A stretch of 64,000 bases of DNA from Bilabrum cf. latius (Eukaryota), in NCBI GenBank assembly GCA_965178125.1, contig OZ237746.1, positions 434,001 through 498,000 of the forward strand. Reading direction: 5' to 3'. Both the position numbers and the translations under genes were made by a program. The number at the start of each line of letters is the position of its first letter. The stretch's first letter is position 1. Positions 6,321 to 60,169 of the stretch are shown here, piece by piece. The notes under the pieces are model-generated. The model did no database searches and was not told the DNA's origin. It saw only the letters and a program-made list of their open reading frames with translations.

Positions 6321-6338
6321 ATTGCCTCTTGTCCAGTT

Positions 6339-14953: not shown

Positions 14954-15477
14954 ATCGACACGGCCAAGCTATGCAGACGCAGCCGTCATTGTGAACTGTG
15001 AACTGGACGGAGCACAGCAACGTGGAAAGTCCAGGTATTCAGTCAAATCACTTAGTCATCTTGGACTTTCTGTCGCACTTAGCGCCTCTTCAATGACGCA
15101 GCTGCACCTGTGGGCAATAAATAGATCCGGTTGCGCGGCACGACTCGGAACCACTGAAAGCTGGGACCGGGCCCCGGGGACCCCTGTCGACTGCTATCCA
15201 AGGCTGGGAGGGTACACGTGGAGTACAGCCCTATATTGAACACGAATATCTGGTATGCCTACGTGTAGATACTGCATCAGTGTAGCCTTTGCGACTCGGG
15301 TCTCAGCGCTAGTCTCATGCGATCCATCCGAACATAGCGCAATTTCTCAATGGAACTTAATTTGACAATATGCATACTTGTGGTATAAGTAAATTGATAC
15401 CGGCAGCAAATTGCGTGCAGCTCACCAAGCATCATGTTCCGTATTTTGCTCTCGTTTTCGATGGTCTCGTCAACGGC

Positions 15478-26600: not shown

Positions 26601-28799
26601 GAACGTCCAACAAGGGCATTGGACTGTGGCAAGCTACCGGACGAGTACTTCCCGGGCGAGTTGCTTGGTGACCTTGGCAGACTCGCTGGCAAATCGAAGG
26701 GCCGGGATACCAGCGCCCTCGCTGCCTTGCGATCCGCGATCGTGGCCATCTCTGCTCTTGGGGGCAGCGCGCCGCGCGCGTCAAACGCCCTAAGTTCTGC
26801 GAGCAATGTCGACTGCACTTGTTCCCTAGCTGATGCCTCCGCAGCTGATCCTCCCGAAGTACCAGCAGGTGGACCTGCTCGGTCGTTCGAGGCCAGGTTG
26901 GTGGGTGTTAGCAGCGGGTTGCAGACCATGTGGAAGGCAGCGATTCCGAAAGCTTCGCACAGCAAGGCGCTTCCAGCCACCGGGTCGAGGTCATGCAGCA
27001 TGGACTCGACGTAGTCCCTGCCCTACCACATGAACGGGAGGTATGACGGCAACAGGGAAGGCCGGCCCTTCCATGGCCTCTCCGGATCATTCATTGAAAT
27101 CGACCCTTTGCCAGCTGCTGCGCCAACTGCAGCCCATGGTTTGAGCTTGTCCACCGTAGAGACTAACACAGCCCCAACGCTCCTATCCCCACTACCATCG
27201 CCTTGGGTTTCACTGCTGATGCTCTCAGCTTCCTTCCAACTGGCATGAAGTGCGCCGCCAGGCTCCATATCTGCCAGCACCGCCTCTTTGCACCTGCAAG
27301 CCACCCGCCAGGCTGCAATTGACTCGATCAGCCGCACACCAGACATTCTGAGATCATACGCAAGCTTGGAAGCCTGCTTTCGGGCAGTTCCAGCCAGTGG
27401 CACAGTGGGATCCCTGTCCCTGAGCCCGCGCACCATGCCCATCATGCCTCGTTTCTGCTCTTCCCTAGTCATGATCCGGTCAAGCACTGCGATTTCCAGC
27501 GCAGCGACGGCGTCCGTCTAGCTGCAAGATAGAAGAAAAATAGTAAGAGGCGAAGTATCTTGTTTGTGTGTGTGACGCGGTCGATTGGGGAGTAAGCAGG
27601 TTTGGCCGAAGGTAGGAGCCTCCGCATCAACCGCAACTGCGCTCTAGTACTCACCCGCCGAGACTGGTCATCAGATGAGACACGCTCGCCGCTGCATCGA
27701 TAGCAGAACTATCCACTGATGGTGCGGTGGATTCAACCTGCTTCTCCTCTGCATCTGCCCCTGCACCTGCCCCAGCATCGGCTGGCTGCTCGTGCTTCTC
27801 CTCTGCATCTGCCCCTGCACCTGCCCCAGCATCGGCTGGCTGCTCGTGCTTCTCCTCTGCATCACTTGCCCCTGCACTTGCCCCTGCATCGGCTGGCTGC
27901 TCGTGCTTCTCCTCTGCATCTGCCCCTGCCCCTGCATCGGCTGGCTGCTCGTGCTTCTCCTCTGCATCTGCCCCTGCACCTGCCCCTGCATCGGCTGGCT
28001 GCTCGTGCTTCTCCTCTGCATCACTTGCCCCTGCATCGGCTGACTGCTCGTGCTTCTCCTCTGCATCTGCCCCTGCCCCTGCCCCTGCATCGGCTGGCTG
28101 CTCGTGCTTCTCCTCTGCATCTGCCCCTGCACCTGCCCCAGCATCGGCTGGCTGCTCGTGCTTCTCCTCTGCATCACTTGCCCCTGCATCGGCTGGCTGC
28201 TCGTGCTTCTCCTCTGCATCTGCCCCTGTCCCTGCCCCAGCATCGGCTGGCTGCTCGTGCTTCTCCTCTGCATCACTTGCCCCTGCATCGGCTGGCTGCT
28301 CGTGCTTCTCCTCTGCATCTGCCCCTGTCCCTGCCCCTGCATCGGCTGGCTGCTCGTGCTTCTCCTCTGCATCACTTGCCCCTGCATCGGCTGGCTGCTC
28401 GTGCTTCTCCTCTGCATCTGCCCCTGTCCCTGCCCCTGCATCGGCTGGCTGCTCGTGCTTCTCCTCTGCATCTGCCCCTGCCCCTGCCCCAGCATCGGCT
28501 GGCTGCTCGTGCTTCTTGGCATCTTCCTCGGAGTCTGCAACGGCTGGCTTCGTCTCGGCCGGATCTGTTCGCAATATTTGGCTTGCGGCACTACTCTTAA
28601 TCTCATCATAACTCTTTTGAGACTCTGAATCACCTGTTTCAATTGCACGACCCTAATTACTGTCCGCCTGGGATTGACCAGACTCCTATGGACTACCTGT
28701 TCCGATTGTCGCAGCACGCAGTTGCTGCACTATATTGGAACTTTCAGCGACAGTACCTGTACTGGCTTGGTCTACACAAATTGGCTATGATCGTTCCAT
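20666..28799 (-). CDS. Large low-complexity unknown protein (~2,670 aa, TAG=Gln; intron 27654-27522)
   Basis: Nine ORF fragments (21017-27487) share one frame with only TAG breaks and end at TGA 20666-20668. A phase-2 intron GTGAGT...TTGCAG links them to the repeat exon starting at ATG 28799. One globular-looking block LRMSGVRLIESIAAWR...PFMW(Q)GRDYVESMLHDLD. Confidence 0.7.
27738..28520 (-). repeat. Coding tandem repeat, about 15 units of 45-57 bp (EEKHEQPADAGA[GAGA/GTGA/S]DA)
   Basis: Directly visible; all unit lengths are multiples of 3. Confidence 0.95.
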
Positions 28800-29280
28800 G
28801 TTCGTGACAACGGCTAGGTGACTAGCCAGAGGGCCGCCTCTTCCTACGCCAGTGGCAAAGTATCCGACCTGAAACTGGTTTGATGAACGAAAACCCCCAG
28901 TACTAGATCAGAATATACAGGACTTGAAGACCATTTTCAAGAGATGTTGCAACAGGAAGCTCTGCATAGTCGTGCAAATATTTCGGACCAGAATAGCTCG
29001 TTACCCCAGTCCAACAAAAATCCGATATTCCAATTAGTTTGCATTAATTGTTTGCCCTCAACAAGCAATACCGCTCTATGTGAGACTGTGAAGCATCAAT
29101 GTCAATCATAGATCCATCTCGGACGAGCATCATGTGAAACTAGGGCATACCATTCATGTGCACCATGTTTTATCTGAACAGCTTCGGTTGTTGCCTTTCA
29201 TTTAGTCTTTCGCGGTAGATTAAGCTACAATACACCGATTTGGGCCGCCAATCTATTTCATGCAATACTAATCCTGAACT
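28800..29280. promoter_or_regulatory. AT-richer divergent intergenic region (probable bidirectional promoter)
   Basis: About 480 bp between head-to-head predicted ATGs at 28799 (-) and 29281 (+), visibly lower in GC. No specific motif identified. Confidence 0.35.
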
Positions 29281-32200
29281 ATGATCGCAGATTCTGATTT
29301 GGTGCAAAGGATGCAGTAGTGCGTCTCTTCGCCTCCTCCACAGCTCCTGTATGAAGCTGTTGGTCACAGAATTGACGTAAGGTATCACACTTGAACCGAA
29401 GTTTAGTATTAATGTATCCCCACAACAGAATTGGTTGCCCCTCTTATATTCCCACTGCTTCTGCAGTTTGCGCTTTGCGATCCTGAAGATGATGATTCAA
29501 ATCATGGATCGCCTGGTAGGAGTGCACCTCAATCTGGGCTGTAGCTTGCTGATGAGTTGCAGGACTGCTTAGTAACAGCCCAAATGCACAGTGAAGCTCT
29601 CCGCCGCCTTGAAAGCTCAGCTCCCCGCCGCAACCGTTCCGCGAAGCAGACGGACGCAGTTTGGGACTGGTCCTCTGGCAGGATTGTAGGCGTGCTACAG
29701 GGCCAGTGGGTCGTTCGAGTGCACGAGGAAGGGGAGGAATCCATTGCAAACGGTACAGGTGGTATGTCGGCCTCGCACTCGGTAGAGGAACCCGCCCTGC
29801 CGAGGGACCGACCTGAGGGCATGCTTGTTCTGCTTTCGCCGTAGAGGCACCTATGGGTTCTCTCCAGGTCGCTGGTGTGGGGCAGGGAACCGAACGTTCC
29901 TTGGCACCCGTGCTGTACCCTGGTATCTGCTCCTTGCAGATAGGTGAAAGGACGCAATCTGCCGCCTGCACGGCTTGATGTCCGTGGTGTTGCCTCCGCG
30001 CAAGATGCTACTGCACCTACTGCAGCCAGTGCTCCCTCGCCATAGGCAGCTGCTGGCGATAGGGGTACTGATCCATTGCGAGTATCAGCCAGCATTGGTA
30101 GATCATCACGAACCAGCTTTACCATGTTTAAGAGGCGTCTTAGTGTGCTGGAGCCAGCTCCAGTAGGCAGCGATGGCCAGCCCATCCGACCGGAGCCACA
30201 CGAATTGGTGCAGCCGGCCACTCGCAATTGGAGTAGGTCACGGGTAGAGCTCCGGTACCTCGTAACGGATGAAGTTGCTTTCGTTCCAGGCTCCAGTATC
30301 CGACCACTGACCCACACGCCGGCGGAGTGCACCAATCCGAGCGATCAGGTAAGGTACGCCCTGGATGTAGCACTGGCAGAGGCTGGTAGAATACGGAGGA
30401 CGAGGAGAAGGTGGCTCGGTAGCCTGCCACCAGCCTCACTGAAGGCGCCCAGTAGCGGAATGGCACACCTTCAAGCTTGGGATTACGCTGCGCGGGTGCA
30501 CGGAGGGGTGGAGCACTGTATTGGAGAGGGAATTCAAGCTCCATCTCACCCACCGAAGCCGAGCAGCAGTTCCTCTGAAACTACCCCAGCTATTGTTTCC
30601 GCTGCATCGTCGCCATCGACGACTGCTGCATAGACTGCACCCCCAAAGTCCTCTTTGCTAAGTCTGGCCAAGCCCACTTCGGCGCCTTTCTCGAGAGGGT
30701 CGGGGGCAGCATCTGGAGCATCGTCTGGGTCTGGGTCTGGGTCAGGGTCACCAGTTCGATAGTCAAGTGATTCGCCCAAACGAGGAGTGAAGCGACGGAG
30801 GAGCCAAGCTCTTGACAAGTCAACGGCTAAAGATGCGCTTGAATTCCCTCTGCCGCCGGCTTTTGGCGAATCTATGCAGCGGCGGACGGGCAGGTCTATG
30901 TGCGGGAGCTGGTGCTGGCTCGTGACTGACGGTGACTCGGGTGCTGGGCCTCTGTCACTGGAGCTGGCAGCGGTTCTACGCTTTCATGCCACCACCGGTC
31001 TGCACCTAGTCCGACTGCCAGGCGTATGCCTGACCCGCGTGGACGCGGACCGGAACACAGCGAACAATTCGGAGACTAACTGGAAGCTTGTGCTTGTGCG
31101 AAGAGCACCGAGGCATGGGATTCACGGCAGTGGTTCTCTGCAATAGCACAAGCAGGAGCTGGCATGGCTACCGCTGGCCTGCTTCGAGCCTAGACATTCA
31201 CAGGAAAGGTTGATCGCAAACGCACTGAGCTAGGCATGCTATGCATCTGTACTCGATCCCTGCGCTGAGGCAGTTGCCATATCGCTGTCCACGGTGCGGC
31301 TCCCGCGGCAGCTGCAGCCGGCGGAGAGCGTCGCATCCATAGTCTCTATGATTTCACTCCTTGGGCTAGGGGCACACACCGCTGGCCCGCTGTCACAGAG
31401 CAGGAGGTGGACGCCGTGGCTGCTGCCGTCCACTTGGAGACTGCCTACACCTGACCATCTGGCCCGTCTGAGATCGATTGTGAGTCCTGCTGTTTCTTAC
31501 GGTGGGTCGCGTAGCGATGATGTGCGTGATTTAGGGATCGGGGCTATTGTGGAGGTCGTGCTGGCTGGCTGCAATGGGAGTATGCAAATCATCAAGAACG
31601 AGTCAGGATCTAGCGCGTCGAATGTGGCGCCAGCAGACGATGCAACGGACAGTTCAATCCACAGCTGGCACACGGCCAGACAAGCAGCAGCAAAGTAGGC
31701 GTTGTCATCTGCCTGCCGAGCAGCCATGGACGGCTGGTGGCAGCCCCCTCCCGTGTCACAGGAGGAACACCAAAAGTCAGGCTCTGCGGGATTGAGCAGC
31801 CCGCAAGTCCCCCTTGCGCTACCCAAAGGCACCGCGCTTCCACGCATGCGTGTGGCAGTGGATGGGATCGGGAGCCTCTTTGGACCAGACATCCCCAGTA
31901 GTGCCTGCAACGTGAGTGGCGCTGTGCCTGCGTGGGCGGCAGGCGCAGCGCAAGACTCCTTCCATGCTGACGTTTTGCAGCGAATTGCGATCGCATACAG
32001 CGCCCCAGCTGCTGCGGCCACGCTGGTGGTGGAGGACCCTTGGTGGTACGTGCAGGCACCCGCCGATGAAATGTACAGCAGCGCCAAGGTGAAGGACAAG
32101 CGAGGGCTGGAAGAGCTGTATGGGGCGTATTCCGACACACCTGTGCCGGATCAGTTTCCCCTATACCATGCAGCGGATACCTCCAGCCACGCATCGACTG

Positions 32201-35200
32201 GGGCTGGTAGCAGAGCGAAAGCTAGGGGTAGATAGGACGATGTCCCGGCTTGGACAACTGCTGCTGCAGTCATCACCGAGCACGTCGCTTCAGAGGAATA
32301 GCAGCGCGTGCCAGCGCTGCCCCTTCGATGCGCCAGATGTTGCGTCTCTGTGTGGCCCGCAGTATTAGACGCGGGCGCAGAGGCGGTGTGGGTCAGCGAC
32401 ACCACAGACTGCCCTGGCGCGTCTCTGCAGCCTGTGTTTGTAGGGGCAGACTCCACCCCGCTACTTGCCAGGGAGAGGGAGGATGAGGAAACGGGTCGGA
32501 AAGATCCAACCGATGGCAGCCAAGTGGGCGATCACTCGAAGCACCCGGCAGGATGGCAGATCGGGGCTTCACTCTCAGCAGAAGTCTCAGCATGCCAAGC
32601 AGGTCCTCCTCAAGGCATGAGCTCAGGCCATGCCCGAGCCAGGGAACCGCCCATTGGAAGCGAATCTGCCGCGAGTGTCTTGCCAAACCTTGCTGCCGAT
32701 GAGTCGGAGCCAGGCCAACCGCCTAACAAGAAATCAAGGGTAGCAGCAACTGAGTCAAATGCTGTGCCAAGCCACCCTGACGTTTGGGACACCGAGAAGC
32801 CACCCGTCCCACCGGTTTGTACGCCCGCCATCGTCTCACCCTATGCCGCTGAGCTGCAGCTAAGGAGGGCAATGGCTCGCACAGGCCGGAAGAACTAGCT
32901 GTTGCGCCAAGCAGTCTCGGATGGAGGTGCTGGTGCAGCCTTTACAGCAGCAACGATCGAGTCTTAGCTTCCCGGTGTAGGGGAAGCTGCAGCGACGGCG
33001 CAACTCCTCTCCATGGGCAGGGCCAAAGAGGCCCTACGGTACATCACCAAGTCCCACAGCGTGCTCTCGGGTATCCCGCTTGGGATGTCCGCATCGGCCG
33101 CTGCTGCGCCAGATCCAGGTACTTCTGCTGGTGGTCTTTTCTCTCCTCTACGGCGGGCAATTCGGGCTGCAGTGAGCCAAAGCAACGCCGCCATATCATT
33201 GGATGGGTAGTCTGGAGCTGTGGCAGAATCAATCGGCAGCACGGGCACCGGCGCGTCATCCCCAGGAAACGTCGCCGATGCTACCGATCATATCGGCGAC
33301 CAGCTGTGCGAGGACAGGGTCTACGACCGCCACGATGACATTGCAGTCATGTAGAGCGTCTCGTAGTGGAGGTACTAGATGTCCTAGTACGCGGGGACGG
33401 GTGAACCGTCTGTCTCGGTCGAGCAGCACGCCGCCGCTGCCCTCACGTCCTCGAATCCATCGTCCTCGCCCATTGCGGCCGACTCACCCAAAGCCCGATC
33501 TGGCTCCGGCCCAAAGGCAGGCCCGCGTCTGTCTCAAGATAGTTCTGGGAGTTCCCAGTAGACTGGGTCGGGATCTGAGTTCCGGTCCAAGCCAGATCCT
33601 ATGGTCTAGCTCCACTAGCAGGCAGCTGCAGGGCTGCCCCCTGCACCCTTCTTGCCCGGTCCACAGGGCCAGGCAGCGCTGTAGTGGGCTTCGTGTGCCC
33701 TAGCAGAGCAGGCCAACGCCGTGCTATCGGGAAACCAGGCTTCAGGGTTAGTTGCCCGTGCAGGACATGGGCAAAGCGGTAAGTCAAAAGTCGCCCAGCC
33801 CGTCGGACTGCTTCCTCGCCTAGCCGCAGAGCGGGTGGTGAGCAGCAGCACGATACATGCTCATCATTTCGGCTCTGCTGTTCCTCATGACGCTGTTGCG
33901 AGTGCGTTTGAGGCCGCCCTCGGGTCACCTTCCATAGCCGGAGTGCTTCCCTCTGAAGGGGCCCTGCAGGCACCCCCTGTGAACAACGGCGACTCTATCG
34001 CTGCCAGGTCGGAGCACCACCGTTCAATGCGACTAGACACTTCATCTCCGCTGTTCCCTCGCCCGGGAAGCTGGTTTCTCGTGGCTCTGGAGGACGGCTC
34101 GCTGGTGTCACCAGGGTGGCGTGGTTGGGATCTGGGCGTGCCTTACCCGCCGCGCTCTTCGGGGCAGCCGGCGAGGGGCCCACGTGCCGTTGCTCTGGTT
34201 ACTGGTTGGATGTGCGACGCTTGCGTGCGATGTGGTGCGTGCGGTGGGCGTGTGAACGGCGAGGCCTAGGCCGAAGACTTTGAGATGGAAGAGGGGAGCG
34301 AGGACCGCGTGGGCGAACCGGGTATGGAGGACGTAGTTGAGCGTGAAGCGGTTTTGCACGCCGCTGATTCTACGGGAGTGTCGAGTACTACGAGTGCCAC
34401 GAGTGACGAAGATACGGACGGCGGCAAAATCATAGACATCTCATCATAGTTCGGCAGCCAGGACACCAGTGGCGTGGTTGGTGGCCGGGTGGCCAGCTCA
34501 GGTGCAGGGTCTGGAGGCTCGGCTGGTCCCCTCCCCGAGAGGCAGGGTCAAGATTTAGTGCGACGCTCAGGTTCGACAGCAAGTTCTGGCGCGGAGCCCA
34601 ACGGTGCGCTTGAATCAAGCCCTGCTGCTGCAGCAGATGCCAAGGTTGCGGGACACGCAGGACAGGTGCCAATGCAGGCAGACAGCAGTAGTGTCATTGA
34701 TTTGCTTACCCAGAGCTCCAGTGCTAGCTCTATGCTGGACGGCAGCACGGGAATGACAAACGCCCTGGGTGAATCAGGCATACAAGACGTCTCATCGCAG
34801 CAAAGCATGCAGCAAACAGGCCTCGAAGATGGCAGAGCTGCTGCAGCAGCGCAGAGCGATTTCGACTCCAAGGCAGCGGAAGAACGAAGACGGAAGGACC
34901 GAAAAGAGAAGTTTTTGCACGACAAAGTGAAGGCAGCAACCGCTATCAGCCGTGCCCAGCTTGGCGGAGCTCGCGCTTCTGTGCCCCTGTGGCAGTTCGC
35001 CATTCATTTCCCGCCGGTCACCCGAGCACCACCGACTGGAGCTGCAGACTCTGGCGAGGGGCAGGACTGGGGCTACGTGGACTTTGAAGAAGAGGAGGAG
35101 ACCCCTATCGACTTGACTGTAGCGCAGTCAGGGCACACATCAGTTACTCCGGAGGCGCTAAAATCGTCCCACATTGCTATGGTGCTAGCCTCGGCTGGCG

Positions 35201-38200
35201 GAAACCTCGGTCGACGCATGCGCTAGCTGCTGGCGAGTGGGGCGTCCCCCCGACTCGCAGGTGCCGCTGTGGTGTGGGCGGGCAAGCTGAGGCCTTCTGT
35301 GCAGGGTGGGGGCAGCGAGGCTGAGGCGGCTCTTAGGGCTTGCGCCCAGGTCTGGAACAGGACCATCATGCCGGACCCCAACGAATTCGAAAAGGCATCC
35401 GAAGCCATGGCGGCTTACTCCATTCAGCAGCTCACGCAAGCATGGGAGCTGCTGGTGCACCCGTTGTCTGCCGGGCAGGAACCGCTGCCTGACATGCGAG
35501 AGCTTGCGGCACGGGCCTGCCAGATCCTTGAAGTGGACCCAGGTGACAAGCTAGCGCTCGCTCCGTGGAAGATGCCGCCTCCGCCCAAGGGTAGGGCTGT
35601 GACGCAGTCCAAGGAGCTCACCGCAGAGATAGCGCTCAGCATTCTGAATACGGCTGCTGCTGGTCGGGCTGCAGGTGCGATGGTAATGGGGCTGCTGGCA
35701 GCGTGGAACCAGAGCCAGTCAAAGCACGACAGGGTTGTGCGCGCGGCAAGCCTGGTGGGATTTCTGCGGGGCGGAATACGAGGACTGTATCGTTTGGAGA
35801 AGGCGCACTCATCAGGCTTGCACGAACTGCTGGTTCCTAGCATACCACAAAAGACATCGGGCAGTGCCTCATCCAAATCCTCGAGCAAAGGCAAAAAGGG
35901 CAGCAACAGCAAGGGAAAGAAGGCCTCACTTAGCAGCGCAGCATCAGCGCTGCTTCAAGGCAATTTCGGAGAGAACACATGGTCAAGTAGGGCCCAAGAT
36001 GCTCGTAGGACGCATGTACTGAATGCCATTAGCTCATGTGTCCGCTCCCGGGAGGCACGCAAAGCTCACAAAATGGTCGAAACTGGAACTGTGGCGTCCG
36101 CGTACGTGCCGTCTGGTTACATGCTGTGGGCAAGGCGGTGCGGAGCGAGTGTAATAGGTGACAATCACGAACTGGGATCTCACTGCGCTGGGTCGTGGGC
36201 GGCCTCATGGGGAACAGCTAGCGCCCTCGAGACGGCTGACCTGAAGGACGCGCTGAAGGCACCCCACCGAAGCGTGGGAGAACAGCTTGCATTTGCTGCA
36301 AGGCTTGCTAGCTGTCAAGCATCCGTAGACGCAAAGAATCATGTAGCTCTAGTATCTGACGGCCAGGGATAGTCGACTTGCAGCTTTGGATCTCATGCAG
36401 AATCTGGGCTAGGGTCACGAGCCGACCCCGCCGGATTCCTGGCAGCAGCATCCACCGCGCCCACGCTAACACCTTGGTTGGCTGGAGGCAGTTCTCCACA
36501 GCCCATCGTGTGCGCGGTTGCTGGCAGTAGTGACAGCTCTGAACCGAGGGGGAGCGCATCGGCGTCCCCTGGTAAGGCCAAGCGTCGCGATTACCACCGG
36601 CGCGATGACGACTTGTCTTGGTGGGAGCCTTCGTTTGTGGTAGTCCTCGGCGCAGCGCAGTACGAGCCGGAGTCTGTGGCGCCACAAGTAACTGCAGCTG
36701 CAAAATCATCTGCAGATCCCGCAGTGCTGCAGTAGCTGGCTGGGGGCCAGTATCTATAGCCAATGTCTGCCCCAGCTGGCGTGCTGTCTACCCGCCCGCA
36801 CGCATCATCGATGCCTAGGTGTGTCGGTGCATGCGAGTCTTGCATGCCTAAATTAGCCAGCGGGGACTTCTGTCCCTTGTCTCTTTAGACGTTTGATGCC
36901 ACTACGATCGGGATGATCCAGTGCGACACGTGCGACAGCTGGTTGTACGCAGGCGCAAACGGCATGTCGGAGGAAGAGACTAGCTTGTTTCTCAAGGGAG
37001 TGCACCCTGCGTCCGGCTCTGCGTTCGTTTGCTCGCCATGCCGCGCCGCATTGATGGCCAAGAGCATTCAGCTTGTTCTAGCCGCCGATAAGGCCGGCGC
37101 CTTCCATCTTCCGATCGACGAGGACGTTGCGCCGGGCTACTTGCGGGTGGTCAGGCGCCCGATGGACCTGTCGACGATCGCCGCTGGGTTCGCATCTGGA
37201 TCGTATGTAGGGATTTGGGGCCCACAGCGGCTGAGGCAGGACGTTGAACAGGTGTTTGTGAACGCAATGGTGTTCAATGAAGCCGGTGACACGCTGTGGA
37301 AAGACGCTGCCAGACTGCTGGCTGCCTCAGCGCACGTGTTCGATCGCTGGCTTCCGTGGACGCACGTCAGCCGCGACACGTTGAAGCAGTGCTCGCCCAG
37401 GATAAACGCAGCAGTGCGCGGCAAGCTGTTCTCGCCGAACTATCCGCTGTCATCGCAAAGCAAGCGCAATTTACAACCGGCCAGCGCTGCCCAGGGGCTG
37501 GCGCAGGACCGTCGCGTGGGGCTGTACAAGCTCGCTAGCTGCCTACCCGGCGCCCAGTACATAGCTGGCAGGAGGTTAGCAGTGCTGTGGCAGCACGAGC
37601 CGCCCATGAGCATGTCAAAAGCGGAAGCAGATGCAGAAGAGGAGACGCTCCTGCTCATCAAGCAGAGAGAGGAGGAAGAGATGGAGGCGGAAGCGAAGCG
37701 GCTGGAAGCTGAGGCGCAGGCCGCCATGGTAGACGACGGCGATGACCTGGACGAATCTCTGCTTGGAGGTAGTGATACTGGGGGCACGAATGAGAAGGGC
37801 TCGGGCATGAGGCGTTCCGCTGCATCGAGTGGCTTGGCGGGCCACGATGCATACGACGATGAGGGCCCAGCAGGGGATGGTGTGGTCATGGTGGCCGGCG
37901 CAACTTCCGAAGCGGGTATTCGTGGTCAAGGCGCCCTGAAGAGCGGTGCCAGGCTGATATCAGTCCCAACCGTGTTCGGACAGCACGTGCGTGCGCGTGC
38001 AGAGGTTCTTGATTCTTGTACAAGCGTGGTGCCGGCCGCAGCAGCCCCGTGGCTGGCAGGCATCGACATGTGTGCGAGATGCGGATCTTTGGGCGACAGA
38101 CAGGATCTGGTGTGCTGTGCGCAATGCGGCCAGTCTGCCCATCTCGCCTGCCTCAAGGGCGATGAGGAGTCTTTTTTCCAAAGATTGAAGCGTACCAAGA

Positions 38201-41200
38201 GCCAATCCAGTGGGCGAACTGGAGCGGAGCTGGTAGTGTTTGACACCGTCTCGAAGCATGCATTAGGTGCCGAGCAGAAGGGCGTATTCGGTACAGCACA
38301 GCGCGAGGATGGTACGCTGGACGCGGAGGTGGACGAGGTTGAAGACGATAGTCGCGTGGATCAGGGACCCACGAAGCATCTGCTAGACGCTTCATGGAAT
38401 AGCTTCGCGCCGACCGGCCGTGCAAGCCCCGCTGGCGCCTGGCGTTGTGTTCTAGATGACGATTTCTACAGCGCACCGCCGTCGACCAAATCTGATGATG
38501 CTACTGGGGAGGACGAGGAACGTCCTGGCCCCGGCTATCCGCCTAGCTTTGACCAGCTCGCCAGCCCGCTGCTGGCTCCTGGCGCCCAGACCATGCTGGC
38601 TCAGACCGGTCTGTCGGCTGACGGCGCAGCTGCGAAAGGCAACCAGACTGGTGGCACTAGCGGTAGCGGTGGCCCGCCGACCCCTTTGGAATGGCCTTCC
38701 AAAGAAGACTGGCTGCACTGGGCATCTGTTCGGAAGCAGGCAGCATCGAGGTGCTGCATCGTCTGGACGTGCGGAGATTGCCGCAATCGAGAATGCGAGC
38801 CGTTGGCTGGTCTCTTGCGACGCGACGAGGCGCCCCCCTTGAGAATTGGCGAATCGGTGCTGCTGTACCCCCCGGCAAAGGCGCGAGAAAGCGCAATGAT
38901 CTGGGTGGACCAGGTCATCGCAGTGACATCGCCTACTAACGCAGTGTCAGGCTAGGAGGATTCTGCTGCACCCTCGCAGTCTTCACCGACAGAGCCGCAT
39001 TTCGGGTTTTTAGATGGCGTATTGCAGGGACCCAAAACAATGCAGATTGCAGCGCAGTAGTCTGCGGCTGCTCTTGTCCAGACGAGCGCATCAAGCGCAC
39101 CTCCAGTGCCGGTGCCGGCGGCCGAAGACGCAGACCGGTTCAAGGCGGAAGCGATGTGTTCCGCTGCGGCTCATTTTGTGTAGGGGATAGAACAAGGGGC
39201 ATTAGAAGTGCAACTGAGCGCCCAGGCGCACGAAGGCGCAGCTGCGGTAACATCTCCGGCCGTGCAGGCCGTTTGCCCGCTCACTCGGGAGCAGCGGGTG
39301 ATCGCTGTCCGATGGGCCGTGCAATGCGTGAGGGCCGTGGCATGGGTGCTGGGAACCTCCAGCCAGAGGAAGGGTCTATCGACAATCATACCGTATCCTA
39401 GTGGCGCCATAGCGGCGAACCAATCCACGATTGCAAGCGTGTCTTCTTCCTCCTCGTCAGCTTTAGCTGCCAACGGTGTGTCGGGCGCACAATCTCCTGC
39501 TGCTGCGGGCCACGTGCTGTCCATGGAAGTGTGGACTGGTACGCCCAGTCTCGCATTTCCCGCCATGCAGGCATGTGCGCCGGTCAATGCCCCGGCTCTC
39601 GGCACTCGACTGACCTTCACTCCTGCTTCCCTGCAGGGGTGGTCTCAGATCGAGCCTGCTGCGAGACGTATTGCCGGATCCTTCGTTCGAACTGTCCTGT
39701 CTCTGGACCACAAGTCGTCAACTGCGGCGGCGCTGTGGGCCACCAGTGCTCAAATGTCGGCTGGAGATGTGCCTGTTGATGTTGGCTCCATCCCCGCCGT
39801 TGTGGCTGGCCGACACGCTGAGCAGCTCTTTGCCGGTGGCGTGCCCTCGATGGAGACTGCCAGGCGGGCTGTCATATCCGCCTCTGTTCTCCGCCGGGCG
39901 GCTGCAGAGCAGATGGTGGGTGCGCTACGAAATGGGCAGCAGACGCGCAGGTAGTACATCGCCAGGCATGGGATCACCTTCGGGCAAGGTCACGTCGTTA
40001 ACCCTGACCTGGTGACAGTTGTGGACCAGGCGGCTGTGGCTGCGATACGGGGGGAATACCCCTTTCACAGTGACGTGCTGCAGCAAGCAGTCGCCTGGAA
40101 CGCAGATCTTGGGCATGCCACTGCACTCCAGATCGTAAGGACCCAGGCAGACCGATAGCTGGCCTCGGTTCCTACGGGACATCAGGCTGAACGGGCTTCT
40201 GGTCGCGACGATGCTTACTGGCGGGAACTGGCAGCCGCTGCGCGGAAAGCCAGGGCCAGCGCAGCAACTAGACCCCATGCCAACGCAAAGGCTGTGCGCA
40301 GCACCAACAAGCACGATATCGCGCAGGACGCGCTGAAGCTGCTGCCGTAGTTTGTCCCGGTGCCCCTGAGGCAGGTGGTGCAGGCACTCCCCGAGGGCGA
40401 CGAGATCGAGTCTCACGAGGCCCAGCCGTGGGATGCCGATTGCTCGCTAGCCGAAATGTGCGAGTCTGGGTGGCTAGCACAGCACCGGGATAATTCGCTG
40501 ACGGAGGGCCTGGACAAAGCCATTCCAATCACGGCATCCGGGCGGCTGGTGCAGAAAGGTCTCGGGGTGGCACAGCTGCCGAATCTTCTGCCTCCTGCAA
40601 GCCGTGCGGAGGAGACCGCGCTGGTGAACTGGTACTGCAACGTTATGGCGCAGCGGATGGGTTATGCCAAATCCATGCAACGGCCACCCCATGACGGATC
40701 CGATTCGCAGGCCGCCGTTGATGCTGCTGGACGAGACAACGACACCGGGTCACGTCAGGCCTCCCTGGTACTGCGGGGAGACCCCTGGCAGCACCCGCCG
40801 AAATACGTGCTAGAGAAAGCAATCCGCTGGCTGGGAAGAGCCAGCGATCTGGATGGATCTGACTCGAATGAGAGCGCAGTTTCGGCCAGTTTCACCGTAC
40901 GCATCGATAGCGATCGCGCTGCTGCTGTCGCGCATCACCTGGAGCGACGGATGGACAGCGCATGGCAAACACGAGGGGAGGAAGCCGACTCTGGAGCGGC
41001 ACAGTCAACCGGGTCCTCTGCGGGAATTGCGGGCTGCAGACTGCCTTCGGCTTGGGTGGGCGACATGGGGCCGCCACAGGCGCAGGCAGCCGACACGTCG
41101 GCCAGTGCGGCAGGGAGCAGGCCAAGGTCGGAGCGAGGGGGGAGGAAACGGGGCGCGGGGGCGTCAGCCAGCGCGTCTGTAAGTGGTCACAAGACTGATG

Positions 41201-43644
41201 ATACGGCTAGCTTATCCACCCTGATCCGCAGCGTGGCCCGCGCTGAATCCCAAGCGGAGGATGAGGTGGAGGTGGATCCTCGGTCGCAGTTTGAGACGTC
41301 TGCTTCGGACGCTGTTGTCAAGCTGCCAATGCTAGAAGACTTTGATTTTGGCTTGGGTGACGATTCAAGCGCTGCCACCGGCCATTCGGGTGACAACGGC
41401 GCGTGGTCCTCGGCGTCCGGCACGGGCGAGTCGCCGTCTTCAGCACCAGTGAGCCATGCAATGAGCGATGATGCCGAGGCAGAATCCCCATATGCAGGCA
41501 TCATGGGCGGTGCAGCAGCTGCGCTTGATGCAGCAGGCAGTGCAGAATTTGCAGCGGAGCCAGAGCTGCTGGCGAGCCGCGAATCGTGGGTGCGGACAGG
41601 CAACACCACGGTTGTCAACACCGGCGTCCCTACCCTGGCCCTCGTATCCCCGAGGCAAAACTTCACAGAGCGTAAGGACAGGTTCGCGTTCGTGCCTGAC
41701 GGATACCTCGCATTCGCCATATTTTGGTCGCATTTAGACGGTGGCAGGCGGGGACTGTACAGGATGACTGTGCGCACTGAGGCGGTGGGACACGCACGAG
41801 GTGCAGTGACCCCACGACGGGCAATCTTTGCCATAGACAGCGAATCCAGAGATGAATCCGACCACCCTATGATCAGCGTGCAGGCAGGCTGTCCCATAGG
41901 GGCGACCACGGAGCTTGTCCTCGCCCTGCGCCGCCTGAGCACAAAGCAGAGCGCAGTGCTGGGCGTGCCGCCACCGCCGTTGCCGTGGATGGCAGATGCA
42001 TCACTGCTTGCTATTGGCACGTATTTGGAGCCGATCTTGCTTCAAAATGCGCTGACGGATGACCCGGACAGCGGCAATGGCAAGTCGCCGCGCAGCCGCA
42101 GCCCAAGCAAGCGGCAGCGCAGCCCGAGCAAGCGTGCAGCGAGGCACGGAGGCGACGCGTCGCGGTCCTCGGAGTAGGGCTCCAATCCAGTCTTGGCTGC
42201 CGGGCTCTGGAACTTGGGGCAGGTGTCGGGCACGCTCCGGGCCACTGCGTGCCGGCTCCACCGGATGGCTGATGCTTCTGACTCCGAATGGTTCGCAGGG
42301 TTTGACCTGATGGGCCTTCTTCGCTCTGCCGCCCTTGCAGATTTCCGCAGGCACGCCAGATACATCATGGGTGCGCCGCAGGAGCAGGGACAGGAGGTGG
42401 CGGAACGGCCACCCCCCTGGAAGGTGGTCACAGCAGACGATGCGCATGCGGTAGGGCTCGACCACCTCGCCGCCGAGATCCGCATCTGTGAAGCCGGCCG
42501 TCTCGCCGCCACCATACCCTCCAGCAGAGGCACGAAGAAGAAGCGCAGACGATCGACAAAGCAGGAGGAAGTATCCAGCAGAACCAAGGCAGATCTCATT
42601 TCAAAGATTAGGGACATGAAGCGGGACTCTGCCATTCAAACGCTGTAGGACTTGGCAAGTGGAACGGGTGCATTCGCAAGGAGTGCTGCTTCAGGCCCGG
42701 CATCAGGCGCAGGAGCTTCGTTTTCATCGTCGGCCACATCCAAAAACGGACCGGCCACATCGCTGCAATTGTCCTCGTCGTCCTCAGCAGCGAGTGCATC
42801 TGCTGGCGAGCCTCCCACCCCTGGTGACGCCGGCCTGAAGCGCAAGGCCAACTCCCACACCGTCCGCGCCCTCTACCTCAAGATGCTGGCCGAGCCACTT
42901 GAGGACAGAGTCAGGGCGCTCAGATCTGCCATTCATGGGTACGGGCTCTTCGCAGCGCGCGACCTCCGGAAGGGCGAGTTTGTGTGCGAGTATACCGGCG
43001 AAGTGCTCCGCCAACCCCTTGCAGACGTGCGAGAGAGGCTGTACGAGCGTGCTTCACTGGGGGGAGACTGCTACCTGTTCCGTCTGGATGACGACTACAT
43101 CGTGGATGCAACCATGAGAGGCAGCGTGGCGCGGTTTATTAACCACAGCGGTGACCCGAACTGCGATAGCAGGATCGTGCAGCTGCCCACCCAGGTCCCG
43201 GTCTCTCTGTAGGGCGTGCTGCAAGTGCCGATCCGGGGGCCGGGAGCACAGGGACTGGCTGATGCTGGCGTGGGGGTTCTTGCGAAAGAGAGGGTTTCTC
43301 AGGATGAAGCTCTGCTGGGCAGTGCTGTCGATGTGAGCCGCGGGCGCGGGAAATCTGGGGGAGTGTCACCATCTTCGGAAGCGGCGGGAGGTGTGGTGGA
43401 GGGTGGCACAGCTGGTGCGTTGGGCAGCGCATTCGGCCCCGGGGACTCTGGCGGCGCGTTTCAGAGCAAAAAGATCGTGATCGTGGCGCTAAGGGACATC
43501 AAGAGGGGTGAGGAAGTAACGTACGATTACAAATTTCCGTTCTTTTTCACGAGGCAGGCCCAAGAGGCCGTGGCTGCGGTGGAGCAGGAAGTGGCAGAAA
43601 GGGCCATTGAGCGAAAGTTGCTGATTGATGAGGGGTGCACTTGA
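29281..43644 (+). CDS. Trithorax/MLL/SET1-like histone H3K4 methyltransferase (~4,760 aa, TAG=Gln; intron 29377-29466)
   Basis: A single frame over 29467-43644 with about 38 TAG and no TAA/TGA. PWWP-like LVWGREPNVPWHPC; PHD-like FCPL...MIQCDTCDSW...FVCSPC; bromodomain APGYLRVVRRPMDLSTI...NAMVFN; second PHD CARCGS...CAQCGQSAHLAC; FYR-like VPDGY..IFWS; SET SAIHGYGLFA / YLFRLDDDYIVDAT / RFINHS / EEVTYDYKF. Confidence 0.85.
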
Positions 43645-43804: not shown

Positions 43805-45110
43805 ATGGCGGCCGTTGCAGGAGGAGGTTCTAAATCTACTGGTGTTGCTACGAGTGATAAGGAAATTGGCGAGGTTCCGAAGGAGATTCTCGATATGACA
43901 AGGTGGGCACTCCCGAATTGTTGTGCCTCCAGGTGCATTTGTATTGTCCTGATTTGTCCAAGCCGTTCCAGGCACCGTGCGCCTCGCACTTTCGAGAATA
44001 AAACTACTTCTGTATGCACACTCGCAGCGCATCATACTACCAAGACAGCTACTCGCACTTCGGGTGAGTTGAAGAAGAGACGAAAGTGCAAGTACCGCCT
44101 CGGCGCACCAATGGACGGGCGCACGATACTTCTGGTTCCGTTTTTATCTTAAAACCTATTTCAAGTGCAGTATTCACGAGGAGATGCTTAAGGATGAAGT
44201 CCGCACCAGAAGCTACATGGATTCGATCGTTAAGAACAAGCACTTGTTCAAAGATAAGATTGTCCTCGACGTAGGCTGCGGCACCGGCATTTTGAGCATG
44301 TTTTGCGCTAAGGCAGGCGCCAAAAAAGTGATTGGAGTGGACTTCAGTGCCATCATTGAGCAGGCCCGCGAGATCGTGAAGATCAACGGGCTCTCGGACG
44401 TAGTCACCCTTGTGCGCGGCAAGGTCGAGGAGATCGAGCTGCCCGACGGTATCGAAAAGGTTGATATTATTGTTAGCGAATGGATGGGCTACTGCCTGCT
44501 CTACGAATCCATGCTCGACACGGTGCTTGTGGCGAGAGACAAGTGGCTGGCAGAGGACGGGATGCTCTTCCCCGACAAGGCCACCATGCACGTAGAGGCA
44601 ATCGAGGACGCCGAGTACATGGCGGAGAAAATCGATTTCTGGAACTCGGTGTACGGCTTTGACATGTCACCGATCAGGAAGCTGGCCATGCTGGAGCCCC
44701 TGGTGGACACTGTGGACGAGGGCCAGGTCATCTCGGACACGTGCGACATCCTCGAGCTCGACATCGCCAAGGTGAAGAAGGAGGACCTGGCCTTCAAGGT
44801 GCCTTTCGAGGTGACCTTCAAGAGAGATGACTACTGCCACGCTGTGGTGTGCCACTTTGACATCGTGTTCGGGCACTGCCACAAGCCCGTTGTGTTCTCC
44901 ACCGGTCCCCACGCCGAGTACACACACTGGAAGCAGACGGTGTTCTACCTCAAGAAGAGCCTGGTGGTCAAGGCGGGGGAGAAGCTCAGGGGAACCTTCG
45001 ATTGCAGACCCAACGACAAGAACCACCGCGATCTTGACGTGACGATGACGTACGAGTTCAAGGGCGAGCTGGGAGAGGCCAGCTTCGAGCAGGAGTACCG
45101 CCTGCGTTGA
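43805..45110 (+). CDS. PRMT1: Protein arginine N-methyltransferase 1 (~357 aa; exons 43805-43902, 44028-44063, 44171-45110)
   Basis: The spliced N-terminus [23 protein letters not shown] restores the PRMT1 motif. Also VLDVGCGTGILS, SEWMGYCLLYESML and THWKQTVFYL; ends YRLR-TGA. Two phase-consistent GT-AG introns. Confidence 0.95.
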
Positions 45111-45439
45111 AGGTGTCTTACAGTTGCCAAACATTATTTTTCCGGTTGCGTGCTGCAGCCAAACTCATTTCAAATTGATGCATTGAATTTCGAGAGTGAG
45201 AAGCAAGATTGTGCCAGTGGTCGGCATTGCGGCGCGTGTCGTCGCAACTTGATGAATGCCGGCAAGCTCTTCGTCGGCAACACCAGCAGCATTCGCACAA
45301 CTTCGACAAATAGCACGAAAGGCGTTTCTTCAAAAGCACCAATTGCTCGTATCGTATCGTGCTCTGGCTGACACCTCGAGTGCACAGATCGAATTTTCGT
45401 GACTGCTCGAGTTCCTGAACGTAGTGCTTCAGGCTCTCC

Positions 45440-48400
45440 ATGGACGCTATACCTGTGGTTCAACGTCCAAGCGCACCTGCAATAGATCATGCCATCTCTG
45501 TTGATGAAATGGTTCGGGAGGCAACTTGCACGAATGGTGTCGTCGTGGTTTGTGGGGCGGTCGCTGTCATCGCGGTGCTTTCGACTGCCACCACGATAAT
45601 CACGAATAGGAGGTACGATGATAACATCATTCGAGGGGCTGACCGCGCATACTCTGTAGATTATATGATGCCTTATTTCGTAGGGCTCAATGATACGACA
45701 GAGTCGCCTCATGCGACCGAGGGCAGCCACGCATTCGGCCTGTTGGCATCGCAGTTTGCCATCGGCATTATTTCCACGGCAATTATGGCAAGCAGTCTCA
45801 CAGCATGTGTCATTTTTATTGCATTAGTAGCAGGAGAGTGCTCTAAAGACAGCCATGTGGGCTCTAAAGGCCGCCATGTGGCTGGCTGGAGGCCGTGCGA
45901 CCTGTCTGCCTGGAACCGTCACTCCATCGTCACTGTCCTCCTCGCACTGCTATCCGTCGCTATCACATGCGAGGCGTACTACCAGTACATTCCAGCTGAG
46001 GACCAGCCGGGCATCTTCGGCACTGGTCCCATCCCAGTGTCCGGCATGCACATCACCAACATCATTCCGTTCATCTGGAAGGTTGCGGCTGCCGCCATCT
46101 CCCCGGTTGGTGTGACGATTGGGCTCTCGATCTCGCTGGAGGACACGGACCAGATGCCATTGGAGGCGTTCTTGACGACGTGTGTGGTCGTCGCCCTCGC
46201 AACTGTCATTGCTGTCATCATCGGGGCCACCACGGCGGAAGATCCCAAGGTCGAGTATGGCCTTAAGCGCAGCAGGGTCTTCTGGATCGTCGTGTCGGTG
46301 CTGGGTGTCGGCCTATGCGCTGCGCTGACCAACGCTGCAATCTCCATCAGCAAGCTGGGACTGGCGTAGGGCACGGCATCTCTGGGCCTCTCCGCACTCA
46401 GCGACATCGGCCGGCTGGGGACAGGTGCGAGCAGCACCAGGTACGGCAGCAGCGGAGGGCTCCGGCTCCGGCTCAACAGCAGCGCTGCCACTGCCAGTGG
46501 AAGCACTGACTGGCTCTCTGGTGACAACGATAGCGTTGCACTTCTTAGTAGCGGTCTGGACGTATCTTCACAAATGTTAGGTACGAATGGCAGGCCACTT
46601 GCGAGCCTTGCTTTGCTGCGTCTGGCGAGCCTCACAGAGTAGTTGCGGCCCACTGGCATTCGCTCGTACGACCCCTTAGCAATCCTGCAACACCACGCGG
46701 ATCGTTTGGAGGCTGAGCAGGGACTCAATGCGCGCTAGGCCCTATATGCTCTATCGCCGCTGGCCAACGGAGTGGCGCTGACGGAGGACAACAACTGGTG
46801 CCTTTACTACGCTGCACAGATGGACACGCAAGCAGCGCTAGCCATGCGGAGCCACCTTCAGTCCAACGGATCTCTCCCAGTCAACCTGATGACCAGCCAA
46901 GGAAGAGAACTAACTCCAAGTGCATCCGGTTCATCGCAGCAAGTGGAGGTCCTGCGAGCGCTGCGGAATGCCAGTGTCAGCGCCAGTGACGCAAGCATGC
47001 GTCAGGCGTTCTACGGCGACATGCCCGCCCCGACCACGCACGTGTTCTGGGCGATCGCGTCGCTTCCGCTCGGAATGATGCTTCAGGTGAACCTCGCCGT
47101 GTTTGTTGTGCTGGTGCTGCTTACACCAAGTACGGGCATGGATGAAACTATCAAAACGTCCAGCAATGAGTTCCGGGCGTGGCTGCTCGAACGCACCAGA
47201 ACTCGATCCAAGCGGCATCTCGGGCGCGCGCGCACAGCGGAGCCATTGGCAGGCAATTGCGTGACGTGCGGAATGGCAGATGATAACTGTGTCGAGTTCA
47301 AGCACTGGCTGTGTTCTACATCAGCATGTTGTTGGATCTGCTAGTGTCAGTGCTGGAGCGGCTGCTCGGCGTGTAGTCCTTCGTCGGCACGGTCTAAGAA
47401 CCTGATAATGCGTTTGGAGCGAAAGCAGATGCGAAGGCGCTCAACATCTGGATCTTCACAGAAGCACAGCAGATCACTGCCTTCTCAAAACGGTGCTGCT
47501 GTCATTGATGCACCTGCCCTGTTGAGAACTGCCGCTTTTCATGAAGTATCATCCGTTGCAGCGAGCGCCGTAGGTTGTTGCCCGCGAGGCCACGGCTAGT
47601 CAAAAGCTGGAGCATTCGACGGCGCGTTTCCTTGCTGTGGCACGCAATAGGGAGAATCCAGTGATTGGTAGCGCAATCAACACGCAGCCGCATCTGCCCT
47701 GGTGCAGGCCAGTATGCGTCGTGCTGCCACAGTCGCCATGTATTTGAAAGGGCTGGCCGTACTAATATTCTTTGAGATGCTGGCTGGTGGACGGATCAAA
47801 TCGAGGGTTAGGATGGAGCCACCAAGACTGTGTGCTTGCGCCTACAGCCGTATCGCTGGCATGGATGGGCTCTGGGATCAGTGCACGGAGGAGCAGCAGT
47901 CTGCTAGCATTGATGATCTCTTGGGCTCGTTTGCGATGGGAGCGATTTCGACAGGGATCACCCGTCACTTGTCTACCCGAATCATATTTGTCGTGCTTCG
48001 TATCATGCTCGTGTATTGTGTGTTCGTGTATGCCCGCTAGATGCGGGATCTAGAGCGGGCCGTGGACATGTCTGAGATGTAGAAAGCCGCGCTGCAGTCG
48101 AGGGTGCGGTTCCTGTCGCACGAGTGCAGGGTGCCTCTGAACTCGGTGGTACTGGGTCTGGATTTCTGCCAGGAGGGAGCCAAGGCGGCTCGACAAGCAT
48201 TGGAGGCGATGCATCGGACGGGCGCGTCCCCAAACTCTGGCAGTCCTGGCTCGCTGGATTAGGACGGTGGAGACAGCAGCGCACTCAAGAAGCGACGGTA
48301 GTCTGTGCCTCGCCGATAGGCCTCCTTTCAGGTAACTTCACGTTCCAAACGACGAGGGTCGTTCGTTGAAATGCAGAGGTGTGGCAGTGAGAAAAACATC

Positions 48401-58726: not shown

Positions 58727-60126
58727 ATGGTAGAACCTTCCGCCGGGTTGTGTTGCCGTGAAATGCCAAAGCAGACGCAAGGACGTGATCTAGTAGATGG
58801 CATTTCTGTTAGCGCTGTTGTTGGTTTGCTTGAAGACTCTAACAATGTGCTCTTATCACAAGCAAACCAGCATGATTCAGGTGAGCAGTATTGAAACGCA
58901 TTGCTACGGTCCGAAACTAAAGAAAAATGCCTGCAATATATCTAAAATGAATTGAATAAACCGCAGGGTCCGACGTTGATCCTGCTGATGCCCGAACATT
59001 TGCAAGAGTACGCGGGGGTATTTGGAAGCGCGGCGAGGCCGGTCCGCTGCAGCGTCTCGGGACACATCCGAGGTATTTCCTAAGAGATCCTGCTGGGATA
59101 CCAGCTGGAATTGCGAACCTTGGAGCTACCTGCTTCCTGAATGTTTGCTAGTAGGTGCTTGTCCGTGACGAAGCGGTTCGGGCGAGCGTGCTCGCCGCAG
59201 GGGATGCGATTGACGATCTTCTCCAAAAGACTGGAAACGATTACATCAAAGCCGCAGAGCTGGTACTCAGTGAACCCTTACAAAGCATCCCGCCGGGACG
59301 AAGGAGCTTGTTCACAGGCTCAAAAGAATCGCTGCCTTCGATGAAGGTGCCGAAGCTTGCCAAGCAGCTAGCGACAGTGCGAGCAGTCGCGGCGGCATGG
59401 ACCCATATGACCTTCGGCCGCAGGGCCTTCTTCAAGCCGGAGGCCATCGTTCACCTTCTGAGCATTGCACCTCAGGTACAGCAGGACGCTGCGGAGTACC
59501 TCACTCTCTTCCTCAACTTCATCACGGAGATGACTGCGCTGGTGCTGCGGGGGCGCGAGGCAGCTTCGGTGAAGATTCTGCACGGGCACTATCGCGTGAC
59601 CGAAATCAACTCACGCAAGTGCTTGATTTGCAAGTATGAGTCCACAAGAGAGGAGGAGCACAGGCTGCTGGTGAGTTGCTAGCGCTTTTTGAATCATCCC
59701 ATGCAAGAGGCTTGCTCACTCACTTGTTTGCTTGGCCTTCGTGCTGCTGACCGTATTTGCGAGTGAAGCTCTCGACCTGTGTGCTAACGATGTAGCTGAT
59801 TATTCCACTAGGTTGCTCATGGGCGCCTTGATGACATTGCTCGTGCTTGTGTCAATCCCCAATTGAAGCGAGCTCACCCAGCGCACGACTTCCCCATTCC
59901 GCTAATTCGAACAACCTACTGGTCGCAGGGGCTCTCGCTAGCAGGAGACTGCCGAGATTTCCAGTCCATCGTGCGCGCATCCTTCCAGTCAGAGCTCATG
60001 TACGGCCAGAATGGCTACGCTTGCCAGCGCTGCATCGAGAAGAGAGAGGCCGATATTCTCTCTGGCAAGATTCCCTTAGACTCAGATGCAGGGGCTGCAA
60101 AGAGCAGCGGCAGTGGCACCCGTACT

Positions 60127-60169
<43 letters not shown>

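Follow-up and report, generated by a model that had tools for sequence, protein, structure and literature searches.

The window analysed here, 64,000 nucleotides of contig OZ237746.1 (positions 434,001 to 498,000 of the forward strand), appears to be nuclear DNA of a GC-rich, intron-poor eukaryote in which UAG is a sense codon, most likely for glutamine, UAA is kept out of the reading frames, and UGA ends every gene seen. Judged from the sequence, the probability of this reading is roughly 0.88. UAG is almost certainly read as sense, and the amino acid that it specifies is very probably glutamine. The most extensive example is a gene for a giant chromatin protein with a bromodomain and a SET domain, called the big gene below. 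Positions 29467-43644 of the + strand (14,178 bases, 4726 codons) can be read in a single frame that contains 38 TAG and no TAA and whose only TGA is the terminal codon (43642-43644). An earlier note on this DNA had counted about 38 in-frame TAG and neither TAA nor TGA before the terminal TGA, and the exact count agrees with it. Over these positions, the two remaining frames contain 16 and 13 TAA and 65 and 108 TGA, by which chance is excluded as the source of the open frame. The frame is open already from 29413 (4744 codons) and its earliest ATG is located at 29584; TAG 29542 may therefore lie 5′ of the start codon, which leaves 37 TAG from ATG to TGA.

When TAG is taken as a stop, the longest open reading frame (ORF) of the window has 689 amino acids. 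With TAG open, ORFs of 4744, 2334, 1941, 1927, more than 1400, and 1048 codons are obtained. The region is overlapped by 98 standard-code ORFs with 60 or more amino acids. Of these, the ones on the + strand whose end coordinate is divisible by 3 were taken as fragments of the big gene; there are 17, all in the same frame. The number of fragments given in the earlier note is confirmed by these figures, and its claim that standard-code annotation shatters these genes is supported.

Pfam profile searches of the big gene product (P0001) detected the bromodomain and, at the C-terminus, a SET domain (PF00856, E 4e-22) that is split into two stretches by an insertion. These two parts of the PHD-bromo-PHD-FYR-SET order proposed in the earlier note thus hold. 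A single PHD was called weakly (E 0.0015, residues 2887-2918), a second PHD-like finger is visible only through alignment to PHD-bromodomain homologs, FYRN stayed below threshold (E 0.17, 12 bits vs a cut-off of 24), and FYRC was not found. TAGs had likewise been placed inside the PHD and SET regions; TAG 36886 lies in a Cys-rich finger that has no Pfam call, and TAG 43210 lies inside the insertion of about 110 residues that separates the two SET stretches. Some conserved domain parts whose translation is indispensable are located 3′ of TAGs, as SET stretch 2 is of TAG 43210. The C-terminal SET domain, the bromodomain, and the PHD fingers (one weak, one seen in alignment only) are shared with the SET methyltransferases of the MLL/Trithorax type. 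The insertion itself (~43183-43560, + strand) is rich in Gly, Ala, and Ser, and one contig piece of sequencing run X5 spans it without a joint. A Cys-rich post-SET motif is a feature of MLL-type enzymes; the big protein ends without it.

The other genes behave in the same manner, as the earlier note had also stated. A frame census was made of 13 gene segments of the window, with 16,721 codons in total, in which counts in frame were compared with the mean of the other two frames. TAG was found 138 times in frame against 146.5 times off frame, TAA 0 against 56 times, and TGA 0 against 336.5 times. At least one TAG is present in 12 of the 13 segments, and none contains TAA or TGA. TAG is missing only from the exon of a PRMT1-type arginine methyltransferase gene; this segment has the highest GC content at third codon positions (0.82) and is also the one with the deepest X5 and X7 contigs. 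The TAG at 59680, counted among the 138, is probably part of the predicted intron of a ubiquitin hydrolase (USP) gene. TAG accounts for ~0.8 % of the in-frame codons, which equals 16 % of the Gln codons if it encodes Gln. The earlier note had extended the decoding of UAG to the whole genome; the TAG pattern is observed throughout the window and in two short contigs of one relative.

All 11 window genes with a visible end stop at TGA. On L001, a metagenome contig of a relative, both a 1700-codon ORF and PRMT1 end in TGA as well. Thus, none of these 13 gene ends requires TAG, each gene continuing to TGA. ORFs that end in TAA were considered as genes and rejected, as each of them either runs antisense to a larger ORF or falls into a stretch at 27.6-28.9 kb that is open in multiple frames. 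TAA and TGA do occur in the introns, both those of PRMT1 and the predicted one of the USP gene, which shows that the noncoding DNA of this genome is not devoid of these triplets. There is little doubt that TAA is not a sense codon: UAA is a stop or is unassigned, and has not been reassigned to sense.

The identity of the amino acid was approached by comparing paralogs and orthologs, namely two hybrid histidine kinases (HK1 and HK2), three ankyrin-repeat genes, and the USP exon of the window with that of L001. Over all contexts, the residues facing TAG were Q 13 times (all CAG), S 7, a gap 5, and N 4 times, others occurring at most 3 times each. In well-conserved contexts, defined by identity at 9 or more of the 16 flanking residues, Q was found 7 times and G and L once each. 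TAG is either kept as TAG or swapped with CAG, both between paralogs and between species; within the best-conserved blocks of HK1 and HK2, TAG in one faces CAG in the other. TGG and TAA, the other transition neighbours of TAG, never face it, which argues that the pairing of TAG with CAG is not mere mutational noise. The Cys box of the USP gene reads NLGATCFLNVC-TAG-TAG-VLV in the window and NVW-CAG-TAG-ILF in L001. Pfam UCH was called on this segment with an E of 2e-6, and the second TAG faces Gln in three distinct solved chains (UBP6, TssM, and USP9X) in a HMMER alignment. TAG thus occupies the Gln position of the Cys box both in the window and in the related species.

Additional evidence comes from proteins of relatives. 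When 1200 residues of the big gene product, with TAG written as X, were searched against 1.84 billion representative proteins, the close matches proved to be short fragments. Four of five fragment ends coincide with Gln or TAG codons of the window (chance ~5e-5), on the assumption that these protein records were called with the standard code and have stop codons at their ends. The end of fragment P0122 at 38953 suggests that this relative likewise carries an in-frame stop codon there. P0275, a member of the P0138 cluster from another source, stops at the same place as P0138. Fragment P0140 spans three window TAGs and has Q at the well-aligned one, 39181. TAG 36886 in the PHD-like finger is covered by 15 of 18 distant PHD-bromodomain homologs in local alignments, and P0126, the closest full-length homolog, has Q at this position. 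A test of the identity of TAG by the composition of its neighbours was uninformative, the best correlations being with F, I, and P at r<0.4.

Contigs of four runs from three studies (X1, X5, X6, and X7) were aligned to the window, and no differing letters, insertions or deletions, or joints were seen within the big gene. Of its 38 TAGs, at least 18 are covered by the X5 pieces listed and at least 28 by the X6 pieces listed. The earlier note had named removal of the TAGs by splicing, or CAG in place of TAG, as what would speak against its claim; neither was observed in these contigs, and no TAG/CAG polymorphism was found, all contigs aligned to the stretch being identical. The runs exist as contigs, which can hide rare variants; X1 is possibly the source assembly, and the X5 and X7 contigs on the big gene may stem from RNA or from DNA. 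X5 and X7 also contain the GT..AG-spliced form of the neighbouring PRMT1. Cover by X5 is absent at 29001-29567, and one of its contigs stops at 43745, ~100 nucleotides 3′ of the TGA of the big gene, the next one starting at 43828; this was seen in a single study and is given no weight.

The same TAG signature is seen in at least two relatives, of which only metagenome or run assemblies are known. The PRMT1 of L001 is 94 % identical to that of the window (83 % at the DNA level), and ORF 1976-7075 (+ strand) of this contig, with its 1700 codons, has 12 TAG and 0 TAA. In a closer relative, PRMT1 is identical at 305 of 308 positions, and big-gene fragments and PRMT1 are each listed on a 9506-nucleotide contig. 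This relative appears to keep the order of the SET gene and PRMT1. In L001 the gene 5′ of PRMT1 encodes a 1700-codon RING and PHD protein and not the SET protein, which indicates that gene order has changed within the group. The more distant P0138 and P0275 are likewise broken at a Gln codon of the window. Among the 120 PRMT1 matches listed, one is at 94 % and the rest at 68 % or less; the best named ones (63-66 %) are taxonomically scattered and include fungi, an oomycete, an animal, and entries from transcriptomes or gene models.

Several observations weigh against the proposed reading. In HK1, a TAG located 5 codons 5′ of its TGA could equally be the true end of the gene, and 13 gene ends are too small a sample to exclude that some genes stop at TAA or terminate at TAG. 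All Q partners are CAG, one transition away from TAG, and mutational proximity thus adds to the signal; the partners other than Q in conserved contexts are L (TTA) and G. Only one strongly conserved external column, that of the USP Gln, holds a TAG; taken over the whole sequence, the underlying matches to PDB chains are weak (E 0.17-0.78). P0140 has E and S opposite its other two TAGs, in poorly aligned stretches. The column of TAG 36886 is variable over the 18 homologs (G 4, Q 3, V 2, E 2, A 1, P 1, N 1, gap 1, and 3 uncovered). No tRNA was found by ARAGORN in the window, L001, or a further contig, L002. Rfam at gathering thresholds gave no matches in these three sequences either.

That the TAGs are untranslated, as a consequence of pseudogene decay, unrecognised introns, mRNA editing, or assembly errors, is extremely improbable. 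Nothing positive argues for it, and only the fact that the runs are contigs, which drop rare variants, can be brought forward in its favour. As stated in the earlier note, random decay is expected to give all three stops together with frameshifts, and the census does not show this pattern; in addition, real and predicted introns do contain TAA and TGA, the four runs show no joint and no differing letter, and related species have the same pattern. It is also very unlikely that TAA and TAG both encode Gln (UAR code, NCBI table 6), with TAA just too rare in a GC-rich genome to be encountered. In line with this idea, TGA is the only terminator seen in the 11 window genes, as in table-6 organisms, and TAA is the rarest stop triplet of the ~60 % GC window (370 vs 1077 TAG and 1735 TGA on both strands). 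However, about 56 TAA are present in each of the other frames, and A-ending codons are not avoided (CAA 204 vs CAG 499; GAA 296, AAA 150). Because CAA is common, GC bias fails to explain 0 TAA beside 138 TAG: a CAA to CAG ratio of 204:499 predicts ~56 TAA, and their absence in effect rules this code out. The 1700-codon ORF of L001, with its TAGs and no TAA, gives the same answer.

A sense codon of another meaning is hardly likely, with Leu, Ser, or Glu as candidates; Glu also has a precedent as an alternative meaning of UAG. In favour of it, the three PDB chains have L, L, and I opposite the first TAG of the USP Cys box, Leu (TTA) appears once among the conserved-context partners, and over all contexts only Q is a more frequent partner than Ser. 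Yet Q makes up 7 of the 9 partners in conserved contexts, and TTG, CTG, TCG, and GAG never face TAG. The Ser pairings come from poorly aligned stretches, and no residue is more frequent than Ser in these low-complexity proteins; if TAG were Leu, the USP Cys box would be without a Gln in the window and would have a shifted one in L001. Moreover, the fragments of relatives end on Gln codons of the window. There is also a slim chance that the meaning of TAG is dual and set by context, sense inside genes and a terminator near the 3′ ends of mRNAs; such codes occur in Condylostoma, karyorelicts, and Blastocrithidia. The late TAG of HK1, at a position where HK2 has CAG, would fit such a code, and 13 ends leave room for a minority of genes ending in TAG. 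Nevertheless, none of the 11 window genes and neither of the two L001 genes needs a TAG end, TAG is not depleted in frame, and, in the sections of the published work that deal with stop codons, UAG is not recorded as a terminator in Iotanema (PMC5304391) or in ciliates with the same code (PMC11687900).

By analogy with other UAG-only codes, a tRNA-Gln with anticodon CUA, one base off CUG, would read UAG but not UAA, and eRF1 would lose its grip on UAG and keep UGA and probably UAA. New TAG codons could then appear freely from CAG by C-to-T transitions. The anticodon argument has been put forward for UAG-only codes, and a change of the GTS motif of eRF1 to GGS, at the residue in contact with the third-position G, has been reported in Iotanema, in passages of the papers concerned (PMC5304391, PMC9161772).

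A code in which UAG encodes Gln and UAA is not reassigned corresponds to the former NCBI table 15. To our knowledge, no nuclear code in which UAG and UAA differ in meaning had been described before 2017, and the cases can still be counted on two hands. The published sections consulted name four lineages with UAG as Gln and UAA not reassigned: Iotanema spirale (PMC5304391), Hartmannula sinica, Trochilia petrani, and Protocruzia tuzeti (PMC11687900). I. spirale (Metamonada, Fornicata) is described from a transcriptome only as using UAG for Gln and UAA and UGA as stops, with 104 UAA vs 15 UGA among 119 ends scored (Panek et al. 2017, PMC5304391). It resembles the window in that UAG alone is reassigned, to Gln, UAA lies outside coding sequence, and UAG is not seen as a terminator; ends are mostly UAA there, whereas UGA is used here at 11 of 11 window ends and 2 of 2 L001 ends. 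Nothing places the window among the fornicates, the best named PRMT1 matches being scattered, as said above. In H. sinica and T. petrani, UAG makes up 18.5 and 31.8 % of the Gln codons, UAA accounts for 91.9 % of the stops in H. sinica, and UGA for 8.1 and 13.1 % in the two species; according to the same section, UAA is preferred in all ciliates studied (McGowan et al. 2024, PMC11687900). These phyllopharyngean ciliates share with the window the reassignment of UAG only, to Gln, a similar share of the Gln codons, and the presence of UAG in most genes. They differ from it in that the window has ~60 % GC, belongs to a contig of ~212 kb (run X1), and contains long, intron-poor genes that end in UGA.

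Codes in which both UAA and UAG encode Gln (NCBI table 6) occur in many ciliates, hexamitin diplomonads, oxymonads, and some Ulvophyceae. They share TAG as Gln and UGA as terminator with the window, but TAA is also Gln there and is absent from the 16,721 codons here. The aphelid Amoeboaphelidium protococcarum has been reported to read TAG and TAA as Gln (PMC5304391, PMC6299283, in part), and Amoeboaphelidium genomes are given a GC content of ~40 % in Table 1 of PMC10608142. Affinity of the window to this genus was considered and rejected, given the difference in GC content (~40 vs ~60 %) and the absence of any such name among the 120 PRMT1 matches listed. UAG alone is assigned to other residues in the rhizarian exLh and three TARA ciliate genomes (Leu) and in Scotinosphaera (Ser), as stated in portions of two papers (PMC5304391, PMC11687900). 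UAG and UAA are decoupled in these organisms as they are in the window; the residue differs, Gln being favoured here. In phages, genetic code 15 has TAG as Gln in crAss-like, Lak, and other phages by means of a suppressor tRNA. That is a viral, late gene-specific recoding in a bacterial host with the standard code, whereas the genes here are cellular, eukaryotic, and interrupted by spliceosomal introns.

In open-access literature (the PMC subset and bioRxiv, with subscription papers and supplements outside its scope), no GC-rich or UGA-terminating eukaryote with UAG as Gln was found. There is a fair chance that the code described here is a distinct variant (UGA-terminating, with UAA unused) of independent origin. 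The fuller proposal, an independent origin of a UAG-only-to-Gln code in a clade of GC-rich eukaryotes (at least three related taxa) with UGA as the working terminator and UAA maybe essentially unused or unassigned, is tentative and rather doubtful. If true, it would make this the first code with UAG alone reassigned to have arisen where UGA ends the genes, opposite to the situation in Iotanema and the ciliates. Each new code that splits UAG from UAA tests the idea of a mechanistic coupling between the two codons. The window differs from the published UAG-as-Gln lineages in being GC-rich and in that every end seen is UGA and not UAA, and it thus bears on which stop usage must precede the loss of UAG as a stop; in Iotanema and the ciliates, a UAG-only change was believed to go together with UAA dominance. 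There is also a practical side. Standard-code annotation of this genome and its relatives would cut nearly every long gene, as it does the 14-kb gene into 17 ORFs. Orthologs from relatives are already present in the public protein collection as fragments ending at TAG or Gln positions of the window, so that any proteome, orthology table, or contamination screen derived from them will be wrong.

Features of the window and of the protein fragments aligned to it, in order of position (for fragments, the position is that of the next window codon)
Feature	Position	Strand	Remarks
Ankyrin-repeat gene, copy 1 of 3	627..2063	-	TAG/CAG exchanges among copies
Hybrid histidine kinase HK1	9275..15055	-	16 in-frame TAG, 0 TAA, TGA end
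ORF of 2334 codons without Pfam family	20666..27667	-	18 TAG, 0 TAA, TGA end
Bromodomain/SET giant chromatin protein gene (big gene)	29413..43644	+	ATG 29584; 38 TAG, 0 TAA, TGA end
Cys-rich PHD-type finger directly 5′ of bromodomain	36814..36960 (approximate)	+	Contains TAG 36886; no Pfam call
Bromodomain, residues 2557-2633 of P0001	37081..37311	+	PF00439, E 1e-12
Fragment P0129, end	37225		79 % identity to window; next window codon CAG
Fragment P0138, end	38122		46 % identity to window; next window codon CAA
TAG where fragment P0122 of a close relative stops	38953..38955	+	Protein library match; 88 % identity to window; next window codon TAG
TAG facing Q of more distant relative P0140	39181..39183	+	Alignment, HFVXG vs HLLQG
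Fragment P0140, end	39253		41 % identity to window; next window codon TCT; poor alignment there
Fragment P0123, end	39940		89 % identity to window; next window codon CAG
SET stretch 1, residues 4509-4590	42937..43182	+	Pfam; followed by insertion with TAG 43210, then SET stretch 2 before TGA
PRMT1-type arginine methyltransferase gene	43828..45175	+	Coding sequence of 327 amino acids, no TAG, TGA 45108-45110
Hybrid histidine kinase HK2, paralog of HK1	45419..51241	+	17 in-frame TAG, TGA end
Ankyrin-repeat gene, copies 2 and 3	54569-56104, 57077-58606	+	DNA of the three copies 89-94 % identical; TAG/CAG exchanges among copies
Ubiquitin hydrolase (USP) gene, first part	58960..59670	+	TAGTAG 59149-59154 in Cys box
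USP intron, predicted	59671..59811	+	141 nucleotides, GTGAGT..CACTAG; 2 TGA, 1 TAA, 2 TAG in the gene's frame, unlike the exons
USP gene, remainder	59812..64000	+	Leaves window at its end; 23 TAG (count from 59800), 0 TAA/TGA

Two GT..AG introns interrupt PRMT1 (43903-44027 and 44064-44170). Their joints are present in contigs of X5 and X7, and the spliced form is not in X1 or X6. The internal exon between both introns has only 36 bases (44028-44063, + strand), as shown by the contig joints in the two runs.

The proteins of HK1 and HK2 are ~42 % identical overall. At the DNA level, three blocks of 236-409 bases with 95-98 % identity are shared between 9311-12615 (- strand) of HK1 and 47829-51196 (+ strand) of HK2. 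The blocks correspond to parts of the kinase core, the ATPase, and the receiver, and elsewhere no DNA similarity between the two genes is detectable. Such a pattern suggests that the catalytic blocks of these inverted copies, 30 kb from each other, recently underwent gene conversion.

For two further genes, the names used in the earlier note, tRNase Z and QRT3-like, received no Pfam support, and several of the remaining window genes are ORFs without a Pfam family. The region 27596-28936 separates the 5′ ends of the 20.7-kb gene (the ORF of 2334 codons) and the big gene; in several of its frames, on either strand, it contains ORFs of 311-422 codons. Those on the minus strand may extend the 20.7-kb gene in the 5′ direction in a different frame; in that case, an intron or a change of frame would be expected close to 27667. 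The 1048-codon ORF at 2303-5446, which also lacks a Pfam family, has a tandem peptide repeat, GTGEDGEGEDG, present ~8 times at ~4300-4700 (+ strand). The three ankyrin-repeat copies are 89-94 % identical in DNA; two of them are in tandem and the third is inverted at the opposite end of the window. The USP gene has long Ala-Pro and Ala-Gln dipeptide runs at ~60900-61300 (+ strand) and, further 3′, a Gln-rich stretch in which TAG is mixed with CAG and CAA.

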